A program made the position numbers and the translations under genes. A DNA stretch of 64,000 bases, from contig JBECUL010000002.1 in the NCBI GenBank assembly GCA_040225955.1, positions 38,312-102,311 of the forward strand, given 5' to 3'. A model generated the notes under the pieces. The model ran no database searches and was not told where the DNA came from. It was given only the letters and a program-made list of their open reading frames with translations. Position 1 is the first letter of the stretch; each line of letters opens with the position of its first letter. Origin of the DNA: Candidatus Asgardarchaeum abyssi (GTDB taxonomy: Archaea > Asgardarchaeota > Asgardarchaeia > Asgardarchaeales > Asgardarchaeaceae). This document shows positions 32,269-36,208 of this stretch, piece by piece.

Positions 32269-33477
32269 ATGAAGAATAAATTGCGGAAATACAAAACTTT
32301 AGCAGTTGTATTCTTCATAATCGGAATTACCTTTACGACTATAAAATACAATGAATTGTCAAGTGATGTAATTTGGCTATATGACATTGGATCCACGCTA
32401 AAACTTGAGGTTAAAGAAATCTATAATGGGACTAAGCATACGATAGTAGATGAAATTGCTAGAGAGTACAAGCTGGATTTGTCCAGAGAGATTTATATTA
32501 AGCTTGATAGTAAGATAGCCACACTGGAACCGAGGGTCATAGCTCTTGGAATTGTGAACTTTAAGATGCCTTATAATCTCTCCGTATCGGTTGATAATAA
32601 GAATTTTAATAGAATTAAAAGGTATATTCTGCCTATATTTTTCCCTAAGAATTTCGATAGTGTTGAAAAAGAGTTACAAGCATTAGAAAACGTCAGTTTT
32701 AGGTATAAACACTATCTCATTTCGGATATAATAGATTGGTATTTAGAATTCTCACTTGCTGATGCTAGGGTATATCTATATATCTGCATAAAGAAAGATG
32801 GCTGGCTTGATGGATATAATATAACCGTAACCAAAGACGGTAATAAAGAATCTTTATTCTTGGTTTGGGGTGGTAAAAAGAACTTTATTTTTGTTCAAGA
32901 AGTATCAAGTAAAACCACTTTAAGAATAATTGGGACTATTCCATTTTTAGCAGCCGCTGTATTCTTTGGTCTTTATATTAAGAATAGGAGACTTCAAAGT
33001 ATTGACTTGTATGAAGCTTTAGAGAAAGCTTTAACTAGGATTGAGAAATATTCAGATACATATTATAGGTTATGGTTAAGTTTATCACTAATAGGACTTG
33101 CCTTAGGAATCTTTGTAGCACATGGGCTCATTACTTTGGATAGTGAAATTACGGTTCTTACTCTTATGGTGTTCTTTTTAGTATCAACAGCAATATTACT
33201 TGTGTTCCTAATGTGGATGTGCGTATTACCAAAACTGGATGAAATTGGGTCTTTAAATTTTTTAAGCCCAATAACACCGACTGTTATTTCATCAGTGAGC
33301 TTTATTCTTGGAGTCTTAATAGCGACAACTTTTAATGATGACCCTTTATTTTGGAGTTTGCCTCTGTTTATACTACTTGGCTTAACACTCATATTAATAA
33401 GGATATCAGAGCCAAGAAAAGAATTAAGGATATTTAAAAAGGAGGTTACGAAGGGGTTCAGCGGATGTCCGCATTAG
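32269..33477 (+). CDS. Multi-pass membrane protein of unknown function
   Basis: N-terminal anchor, soluble loop, ~5 C-terminal TMs; last codons overlap the GC-rich element. Confidence 0.65.
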   Translation: MKNKLRKYKTLAVVFFIIGITFTTIKYNELSSDVIWLYDIGSTLKLEVKEIYNGTKHTIVDEIAREYKLDLSREIYIKLDSKIATLEPRVIALGIVNFKMPYNLSVSVDNKNFNRIKRYILPIFFPKNFDSVEKELQALENVSFRYKHYLISDIIDWYLEFSLADARVYLYICIKKDGWLDGYNITVTKDGNKESLFLVWGGKKNFIFVQEVSSKTTLRIIGTIPFLAAAVFFGLYIKNRRLQSIDLYEALEKALTRIEKYSDTYYRLWLSLSLIGLALGIFVAHGLITLDSEITVLTLMVFFLVSTAILLVFLMWMCVLPKLDEIGSLNFLSPITPTVISSVSFILGVLIATTFNDDPLFWSLPLFILLGLTLILIRISEPRKELRIFKKEVTKGFSGCPH

Positions 33478-33651
33478 TGAGCGAACATCCACCTTGGGCC
33501 TCATCAGCCTCAGCTCCCTCTGGGTTCATGGGGAGCAAGTCATCGGTCTCGACCCCGTTCAGGGTAACCCCGCAAGCCCCACATCGCAGCGTCCTTTCAC
33601 ACCGCAATGTCCTTTCGGTGCTTTACTCCCACCACATTCGGACATTGCTTC
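33436..33651 (-). ncRNA. Structured GC-rich RNA resembling an IS200/IS605 TnpB omega-RNA / non-autonomous element
   Basis: GC island; hairpins 33604-33648 and 33461-33492 (latter needs G-U pairs that form only on the minus strand); GATGTGGGG...CCCTGAACGGGG...GATGA motifs like archaeal tnpB 3' ends; TATA TTAAATAT at 33681-33674; T5 at 33440-33436. Confidence 0.65.
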
Positions 33652-33742
33652 AATACTCACAAGTGCTCACAAAATATTTAACTGTTTCGGAAGGCACTGG
33701 AAGAGAAACAGCAAATTAATACTACCTAAAGAAGCTATCATG

Positions 33743-34102
33743 CTATTCTACACGGATTTCCTTTTCCATTTCCCACTGTCCGTGAATATTGCATCTTGCT
33801 ATTACTTTTAGCTTTGCATTCTTTCCGACTCTTATTTTTAACGTTACTTCTGGCTCCATAATAATCGGCACAAACATAACTCTAGACAGAAAATGATCAT
33901 CCAAAATTAGGTCTATCCAAACGATATAATGCTCAAACGTATTGGGATGAGGTATCTCACCAACTTTTATTTTCACCTCAAATGGCTCACAGCTTTTTAC
34001 CTTATCAGGAATTTTAATGATGGGCTTGTGCATTTTCCCATATTCTGTTAATTCTGCCTTTTTGCTCAGAACAACGATGGGCTCAACACACTTTTCAGCC
34101 AC
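33743..34102 (-). CDS. sor: Superoxide reductase (neelaredoxin / class II SOR-like)
   Basis: KMHKP, PHPNTFEHYIVWIDL, CNIHG iron ligands. Confidence 0.85.
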   Translation of the reverse strand: MAEKCVEPIVVLSKKAELTEYGKMHKPIIKIPDKVKSCEPFEVKIKVGEIPHPNTFEHYIVWIDLILDDHFLSRVMFVPIIMEPEVTLKIRVGKNAKLKVIARCNIHGQWEMEKEIRVE

Positions 34103-35546: not shown

Positions 35547-35783
35547 ATGGCCATTGTAAAAATTAGCAAGAGACGAATATATATTCCATCGAAGATTGAT
35601 TTTAAAGGGGATAGAGCAATAATAATCCCATTCGGAAAAGGATTACTAGTATATCCAATTCCAGCAAAATTTAGAGAGATAGATATTCCCCATTCTATAA
35701 AGGAACTCAAAGAAATTGCTGAGCAGAAAGCTAAGGAAGAGGCTCTTAATAAATTGAAAAAGAGGGAAGCAAGAAGATGCTAA
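35547..35783 (+). CDS. AbrB-like antitoxin
   Basis: VKISKRRIYIPSKI motif; overlaps the downstream PIN gene. Confidence 0.7.
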   Translation: MAIVKISKRRIYIPSKIDFKGDRAIIIPFGKGLLVYPIPAKFREIDIPHSIKELKEIAEQKAKEEALNKLKKREARRC

Positions 35784-36208
35784 TTGAAAGCGATATAATT
35801 ATCGCACTTATTAAAAGAAGAGACTGGTTAAAACCAGTTGCTGAAAACATTTTAATGTTGATCAAGAAGGGAGATCTGCGTCCAATAGAGATTTCAACTG
35901 AAATACTTCATGAACTTTATTATGTAGCATCAGAGTTTGCAGATCTTGATATTGTTTTGGAAAATTTTGTAAAAATTGCTGGTTTAGAAAATATTAAATT
36001 CTTAAGACCAAAACCAGAAACTTACATAACCGCGGTTTTTATTATGAAAAATTATAATATAACATCTATTTTCGATGCTATATATGCTGCACATATACTT
36101 AATAAAGATAGTTCAGATAATATAATCATAAGTACTGATCACATTTATGATAAGATTCCTGGGATTAAAAGAGTAGATCCGAGAAAGCTTAATAGTTTAA
36201 TTGAATAA
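35777..36208 (+). CDS. vapC: PIN-domain (VapC-like) toxin
   Basis: IESDIIIA, ILHEL, SIFDAIYAA, IISTDHIYD. Confidence 0.85.
   Translation: MLIESDIIIALIKRRDWLKPVAENILMLIKKGDLRPIEISTEILHELYYVASEFADLDIVLENFVKIAGLENIKFLRPKPETYITAVFIMKNYNITSIFDAIYAAHILNKDSSDNIIISTDHIYDKIPGIKRVDPRKLNSLIE

Follow-up and report, generated by a model that had tools for sequence, protein, structure and literature searches.

A 240-nt island in an Asgard archaeal genome is probably a protein-less IS607-type mini-element with an omega-RNA usable in trans

What is the origin of a short GC-rich island that overlaps the 3' end of a predicted membrane protein gene in Candidatus Asgardarchaeum abyssi, and does it encode an RNA of its own? 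The window, by which the whole analysed stretch of 64,000 nucleotides is meant, had been examined before from its letters alone, and this sequence-only reading took the island for an orphan omega-RNA of the TnpB type with its own promoter and a short guide antisense to the neighbouring gene, to be used by a TnpB or TldR protein encoded in trans. The GC contrast on which it was based is real, as the minus-strand island (33453-33694) has 58-61% GC versus about 0.32 in the flanks and 34% in the genome, and the 225-nt RNA of the island is predicted to fold with -94.1 kcal/mol (z = -4.57), a stability reached by none of 200 shuffled sequences. The host genome is an archaeal metagenome-assembled genome (MAG) of 2.64 Mb in 189 contigs (34% GC, 93% complete), and as a TATA-binding protein and an archaeal RNase P RNA are found in it, it is appropriate to read the box in the island as a BRE/TATA element. 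A search of the window's contig gave no match to a tnpB, a Y1 tnpA or a resolvase, in agreement with the claim that neither tnpA nor tnpB is present, and the box, the hairpin, the core, the K-turn-like boxes, the terminal hairpin and the TTTTT run all lie where they had been reported. The features are:

33453..33694, minus strand: entire mini-element with the CC core of either junction; net insertion 240 nt
33694-33693 and 33454-33453, minus strand: CC core junctions of the mini-element
33695..33695, minus strand: invariant G directly before the left-end core, nGCC in the target (15/15 aligned copies and the empty site)
33671..33694, minus strand: left-end terminus CCTTCCGAAACAGTTAAATATTTT with the BRE/TATA-like box, nearly invariant in all copies
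33681-33674, minus strand: TATA-like box TTAAATAT, a predicted promoter element
33653..33672, minus strand: two tandem 10-nt direct repeats, TTGTGAGCAC and TTGTGAGTAT, seen in the sequence and conserved in the copies
33604..33648, minus strand: hairpin 1, GCAATGTCC (33648-33640) with GGACATTGC (33612-33604), 9 bp
33458..33607, minus strand: relic frame of 49 codons (...CGACGVTLNGVETDDLLPMNPEGAEADEAQGGCSLTNADIR and stop), remnant of a TnpB C-terminal tail, no gene
33453..33585, minus strand: omega-RNA scaffold, 133 nt
33580-33577 with 33456-33453, minus strand: P1, GGGG/CCCC, adjoining the guide
33572-33560, minus strand: P2, a triloop hairpin
33555-33551 with 33500-33496, minus strand: P3, GGGNC/GNCCC
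33548-33506, minus strand: K-turn-like module, optional across sequences
33492-33461, minus strand: P4, terminal hairpin of 12 bp with two G-U pairs
33437..33452, minus strand: guide position TTCGTAACCTCCTTTT, 16 nt of flank
32269..33477, plus strand: host gene, 402 aa, predicted membrane protein
33694..33729, plus strand: former 3' end of the host gene, now cut off (ALEEKQQINTT and stop); it directly follows codon 395 in the metagenome contigs L065 and L066

Read on the minus strand from 33695 to 33436, the order is thus a G, CCTTCCGAAACAGTTAAATATTTT, the repeats, the 9-bp hairpin, a GC-rich block of 133 nt (33585-33453) that runs from GATGTGGGG to CTGAACCCC, and host DNA (TTCGTAACCTCCTTTTT). 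The block opens with the core GATGTGGGGCTTGCGGGGTTACCCTGAACGGGG at 33585, the GATGA and CTGA boxes in it sit around a GCTCCC/GGGAGC stem, and the terminal hairpin is followed by TGAACCCC, then TTCGTAACCTCC, then TTTTT (33440-33436).

That the island is an insertion follows from alleles without it. The sequence-only reading had advised to look for an empty site in relatives, and two were found: the metagenome contigs L065 and L066 share synteny with the window (98.7-99.6% identity) and are free of the element. The empty contigs read ...ACGAAGGCACTGG..., whereas the window reads ...ACGAAGG, then 240 nt, then CACTGG..., with GG at both junctions. The comparison of the occupied with the empty site therefore defines an insertion of exactly 240 nt with a single GG/CC core, without target duplication and without inverted repeats, and shows that the insertion took place by exchange at the CC/GG core. 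For the host gene, which has no Pfam family, this meant a new 3' end, as its last 7 codons (GFSGCPH) and the stop (33454-33477) are supplied by the element and replace the 11 original codons ALEEKQQINTT; the uninterrupted homologue P0001, encoded on the two empty-site contigs, has 406 aa and is 99% identical to the 402-aa product. Further along the window (35547-36208, plus strand), a 78-codon ORF overlaps the gene of a 143-aa PIN-domain protein in a layout like that of VapBC toxin-antitoxin systems, and this gene pair is also found on the empty-site contigs.

The island is not a single case either. A BLAST search of the whole genome, likewise proposed by the sequence-only reading together with a search for tnpB 3' ends, found both and gave 31 matches, of which at least 15 are full-length at 82-97% identity, the others including fragments. 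The copies begin with GCC(T/C)TCCGAAAC and end with GAACCCC, and beyond these points the flanks diverge, so that at least 15 copies have sharp ends. A covariance model of the scaffold (R1) matched the genome 27 times, 18 times with 98-138 bits and once in the window, where the copy scores 137.5 bits, and decayed or truncated copies exist as well (C26, C68 and C24:2892-3024; C numbers are contigs of the MAG). In total, the genome contains about 19 copies of the mini-element in unrelated flanks. The description as a single stand-alone gene has thus to be given up, and as the copies occupy about 19 unrelated sites and this site is polymorphic in metagenomes, the mini-element is mobile or has been so recently. 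It is also not confined to this genome, since of 150 other genomes sampled from the phylum, 13 have matches to the model of its scaffold; they belong to 8 other genera and contain up to about 20 copies each, and 10 metagenome loci carry the gene-less form, some of them in new sites.

Several observations concern the copies individually. The metagenome contig L064 (Ga0116200_10002317) joins the flank of C53 to that of C91 across a single mini-element, and therefore these two MAG contigs are neighbours. In the metagenome Ga0164318, two gene-less copies (L057 and L060) have the middle module of the C97/C135 type (GATTTACTCCCCCATGAACCCAGAGGGGAGTTGAGGCTGATGCGAC), which suggests an exchange of modules between scaffold lineages. 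At C68:1-126, a different GC-rich sequence (...CCCACCACCCAGCCCCCTCCCTCCCAGACCGC...) adjoins a 5'-truncated copy of the mini-element and may be another inserted element. A second gene-less family is found in the same genome outside the window (C53:490-651, C91:144 and C29:7587, the latter two on the minus strand); its left end, GCCTAACGAAACTGTTC...CTTTAAATATTTTTATGAATAAATATGAG, is like that of the C44 tnpA, and on C53 it is joined to a C1-type scaffold ending with GTGAACCCC.

The origin of the scaffold can be traced to tnpB genes. Both in the host genome and in other archaea, tnpB 3' ends together with right ends are homologous to the 3' 133 nt of the island, with DNA identities of 84-87% to the tnpB 3' ends. 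The tnpB genes on C97 and C135, which are cut by contig ends, carry a stretch 84% identical to the island that overlaps the C-terminal tail, and end with ...GGACAGACCCC (...GACCCC) at the point where the flanks break off; the intact tnpB on C1 (393 aa) ends with GATGTGGGGCTCCGGGGTTACCCCGAAGG...GTGAACCCC. An exact-pattern scan of the genome contigs with the P2/P3 core found nothing; a second such scan, with the right-end hairpin, returned 16 loci with the terminal hairpin and CTGAACCCC, which belong to MAGs with the labels Baldrarchaeum, Archaeoglobales, Desulfurococcaceae and Methanobacteriota. At several of them, the hairpin directly follows a tnpB of 337-435 codons, the product of which has the tail ...GGCSL(T/I)NADIR before the stop. 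As a separate observation, the right-end hairpin AATGYGGACATCCRCTGAACCC is found in the loci L039-L054, whose MAGs bear the labels Asgard, Archaeoglobales, Desulfurococcaceae and Methanobacteriota, and judging from these sequences, this tnpB lineage seems to have spread horizontally between archaea. In the window itself, the frame 33607-33458 still reads ...GVTLNGVETDDLLPMNPEGAEADEAQGGCSLTNADIR and stop, and residues 301-337 of the L045 TnpB align by tblastn to 33571-33461 with 78% identity (E 4e-11). What had been described as a TnpB zinc-finger tail is hence indeed the relic of a TnpB tail, only that this part follows the zinc ribbon and is not the zinc finger itself; the ERTLRC motif, given twice in the reported peptide, occurs once. 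Searched against Rfam, the window had no match at the gathering score, and with E values up to 10 the region 33200-33950 gave only two chance matches (E 3-5). The sequence-only reading had made itself dependent on similarity to tnpB 3' ends and on whether another Rfam family matches; as the similarity was found and no family matched, both outcomes favour an omega-RNA.

The structure of the scaffold was scored on an alignment of 25 gene-less and tnpB-linked sequences. Its pairs are formed in 91.6% of the cells, versus 34-50% when the structure is slid along the alignment, and 15 pairs show double changes, versus 3-7 when slid, with 0 of 500 shuffles reaching such values, where it has to be considered that the structure was derived from the same sequences and that some rows are linked to tnpB, where coding constraint also acts. 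One pair in P3 occurs in 6 pair types, and compensatory changes are also found in P4 and in stem pairs, whereas one of the K-turn-like stems has an A-C mismatch in the window copy. The scaffold clearly shares covarying helices with the homologous tnpB-linked scaffolds, and the view that the island contains a TnpB-type omega-RNA scaffold without a tnpB gene, with a guide from the flank at its 3' end, is supported.

To which kind of transposon the ends belong can be judged from their details. IS607 elements are characterized by GG at the termini and in the target, and by the lack of target-site duplications and terminal inverted repeats (PMC6188088). The mini-element has an identical core dinucleotide (GG/CC) at both termini and in the target, no target-site duplication in 15 copies, and no terminal inverted repeats. 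An IS607-type tnpA on C44 is preceded by a left end that is similar to that of the mini-element in its terminus and TATA region (GCCTAAAGAAACTGTT...TTTAAATG); the TnpA encoded there, behind GCCTAAAGAAACTGTT...TTTAAATGTTTTTATGG, combines a MerR-like HTH with a resolvase domain. The first 17 nt of the mini-element also resemble the left termini of C1-type tnpB elements (GCCTTTTGAAACTGTTA at C1:3692). A resolvase fragment on C135 adjoins a right-end fragment. The two 10-nt repeats of the left end, with the consensus TTGTGAGYAY, are candidate subterminal repeats for TnpA binding, as IS607 ends carry short direct repeats (PMC6188088); at the right end, no short subterminal direct repeat was identified. 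A palindrome-associated element (PATE) mobilized by a Y1 transposase was considered and rejected because of the empty site with its CC core and the left end of the serine-recombinase type; moreover, the left terminus has no hairpin, and only the G and the CC core are fixed. A classical MITE was also dismissed, since terminal inverted repeats and target-site duplication are both absent and the likeness is limited to the small size and the non-autonomy.

The similarity of the left end to those of tnpB and tnpA elements also bears on the promoter. There is a BRE/TATA-like box upstream of the scaffold, as claimed, but it belongs to a left end resembling that of the C44 tnpA element, and the supposed own promoter is thus most simply explained as the left-end promoter of the parent element. 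Such a box upstream of the scaffold is also kept by independent gene-less derivatives in other archaea (L044/L051 and L053, and likewise C53:490-651). Hairpin 1 begins 25 nt after the TATA-like box and occurs only in gene-less copies, a related form being present in a locus of a Methanobacteriota MAG (L047); no parent tnpB with this hairpin was found in the genome, in the fetched loci or among 10 metagenome matches, all of which are gene-less. One of its pairs changes across copies from A-U via G-U to G-C while another turns into A-C, which is weak evidence for a constraint as far as sequence comparison can tell.

Among possible partners, the TnpB of C1 can be aligned with solved TnpB structures, keeps the D, E and D motif residues, and is 67-68% identical to TnpBs whose scaffolds share this terminal hairpin. 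In the 93%-complete assembly of 189 contigs, none of the tnpB genes has this terminal hairpin and right end, and the nearest tnpB scaffolds in the genome differ, those of C97 and C135 in P4 and that of C1 in the middle module. That no full tnpA-tnpB copy is seen is a consequence of the assembly breaking at autonomous elements. The IS607-type tnpA with its left end runs off the contig end (C44:1-800, minus strand), and contig ends are also where the 3' halves of two tnpB genes begin (C97:1-445 and C135:3430-3895). Upstream of the intact tnpB of C1, a frameshifted relic with a MerR-like HTH (...AAKILG.../...IRTVIMWIKKGLIKAVRLPNRRYRIP...) at C1:3753-3908 (L022:463-618) is probably the remnant of an IS607-type tnpA.

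The boundary between scaffold and guide is fixed by the empty site, and the scaffold ends at the element boundary in all copies. A guide of about 15 nt had been assumed, and it does derive from the flank; however, the CCC at its beginning belongs to the scaffold and recombination core, which leaves only 12 nt of flank before the T5 run. This run is host coding sequence that is also present in the empty allele and lies outside the element, and the guide bases, too, are original host coding sequence found in the empty allele. The guide is antisense to the final codons of the host gene mRNA because the element landed 36 nt before the stop codon of that gene, and this orientation, which had been pointed out before, is a by-product of the insertion, judging by the empty-site alleles. 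The guides of 19 copies (16 nt after the scaffold) were searched in the genome and have no second perfect site, but only matches with 1-2 mismatches, so that nothing points to a regulatory or TldR-like role, and the suggestion of a TldR-type partner in trans found no support. The right end carries a C where the left end has the G (CCC versus GCC); beyond the G, the 5' flanks of the copies show only a weak preference for a pyrimidine or A at position -4. In an IS607 element of C. botulinum (CboIStron), TnpA target and TnpB TAM coincide (TGGG), the core forms the end of the scaffold, and the empty site is told apart from the right end (TCGG) by the G at -3 (PMC10690162). By analogy, nGCC may be the TAM of the present element.

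It is therefore the most probable explanation, to which we assign a probability of about 0.75, that the island arose by deletion from an IS607-type element (serine-recombinase tnpA plus tnpB) and is now a protein-less derivative of 240 nt with an omega-RNA usable in trans. Such a derivative would have retained the left-end terminus with the BRE/TATA-like box and the two 10-nt repeats, the hairpin that is specific to gene-less copies, and the last 133 nt of the parent, that is a relic tnpB 3' end plus the right end, which encode the scaffold. A TnpA encoded elsewhere, for example by the IS607-type gene on C44, would move it, and the left-end promoter would give rise to an RNA of about 215 nt, the 3' end of which would be adjacent host DNA. 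A compatible TnpB supplied in trans, either the intact protein of C1 (393 aa) or one of the C97/C135 type, could load this RNA, the loaded TnpB would cut the empty site at nGCC followed by TTCGTAACC..., and repair from the occupied copy would restore the element there, while the occupied site would be spared due to the difference of G versus C at position -3. The antisense overlap with the neighbouring gene is incidental.

The same island could in principle be an inert passenger, a remnant mobilized by TnpA in which the scaffold is kept only by its overlap with the recombination site of the right end and by recency, without any functional guide RNA. It agrees with such a passenger that the assembly contains no cognate tnpB with the same right-end hairpin, that the window copy has the mismatch in its K-turn-like stem and some copies are decayed or truncated, and that the copies are young (82-97% identical), so that the scaffold could be conserved within the genome because there was little time for change and not because of selection. 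Yet 18 copies reach their 98-138 bits over the full model, stepwise compensatory changes occur within the gene-less copies (in hairpin 1 and in P4 and stem pairs), the independent derivatives have kept the TATA-like box, and stand-alone omega-RNAs were shown elsewhere to work in trans (PMC10691335), and we thus regard a mere passenger as unlikely. It has also been considered that the gene-less copies form an autonomous library of guides with which one TnpB polices about 19 loci in trans, and that some copies might in addition act on host genes, silencing or trimming them by antisense transcription or by RNA-guided binding. The promoter of their own, the hairpin specific to gene-less copies that is also met in a Methanobacteriota MAG, and the K-turn-like module are the basis offered for this idea, which appears quite improbable to us.

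Control of the 402-aa gene by a domesticated regulator, with the RNA either serving as the guide of a TnpB- or TldR-like protein or simply acting in antisense, would have a precedent in the TldR-type exaptation of TnpB (10.1101/2023.11.30.569447) and would fit to the complementarity of guide and read-through to the 3' end of the 32269..33477 mRNA. This overlap was created by the insertion itself, however, the 19 copies lie in unrelated places with no guide having a second perfect site, the site is polymorphic and not fixed, and the RuvC residues are present in the candidate TnpBs, for which reasons a TldR-type domesticated guide was rejected and regulation in general is considered highly improbable. 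The least probable alternative, with practically negligible weight, is an unrelated structured RNA family, such as a C/D-box-like or another small archaeal RNA, that merely resembles an omega-RNA. The GATGA and CTGA boxes flanking a stem and a GC-rich, stably folding island in an AT-rich genome would be expected of it, but there is no Rfam match at the gathering score and no relevant one at E values up to 10, the homology runs into tnpB coding tails, and the island has transposon-like ends and an empty site.

A protein-less IS607-type derivative with an omega-RNA adds no new principle, as selfish DNA of this kind, namely stand-alone mobilized omega-RNAs, is already known. It is a clean natural case, from Asgard archaea, in which no more than the ends of a transposon and a guide RNA are left, with both the occupied and the empty allele recovered. 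Since the exact 240-nt insertion at the CC core fixes the boundary of scaffold and guide and suggests an nGCC TAM, a direct test of homing by a trans-acting TnpB in archaea is straightforward. For annotation it follows that a GC island of this kind in an AT-rich archaeal genome is a mobile cassette for a guide RNA and not a new family of RNA genes.

The closest known systems are the stand-alone, mobilized omega-RNAs of OMEGA systems that act in trans (Altae-Tran et al. 2021, according to PMC10691335). They share with the present element a scaffold inside transposon ends, the lack of an effector or transposase gene, a guide derived from the flank, and a genome that also holds effector-carrying copies; unlike them, our element is from an Asgard archaeon and has an IS607-type (serine recombinase) backbone and an archaeal BRE/TATA-like box. 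PATEs of the IS200/IS605 group often encode omega-RNAs as well (Meers et al. 2023, 10.1101/2023.03.14.532601), and like the mini-element they are protein-less, their omega-RNAs needing TnpB in trans, but PATEs have palindromic ends and depend on a Y1 transposase that inserts them beside a TAM of 4-5 nt, in contrast to the IS607-type ends and the CC core found here. With CboIStron (PMC10690162) and IS607, IS1535 and ISC1926 (PMC6188088), the element has in common that there are no terminal inverted repeats and no target-site duplication and that a 2-bp core is present at the ends and in the target, and the two 10-nt repeats at its left end may correspond to the subterminal direct repeats of such elements, from which it differs by the loss of both genes and the lack of a group I intron. 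As in CboIStron, the scaffold ends in the core, and the base 3 nt before the guide is a G in the target and a C in the right end, with the difference that the core on the omega-RNA strand is CC and not GG; the putative motif here is nGCC.
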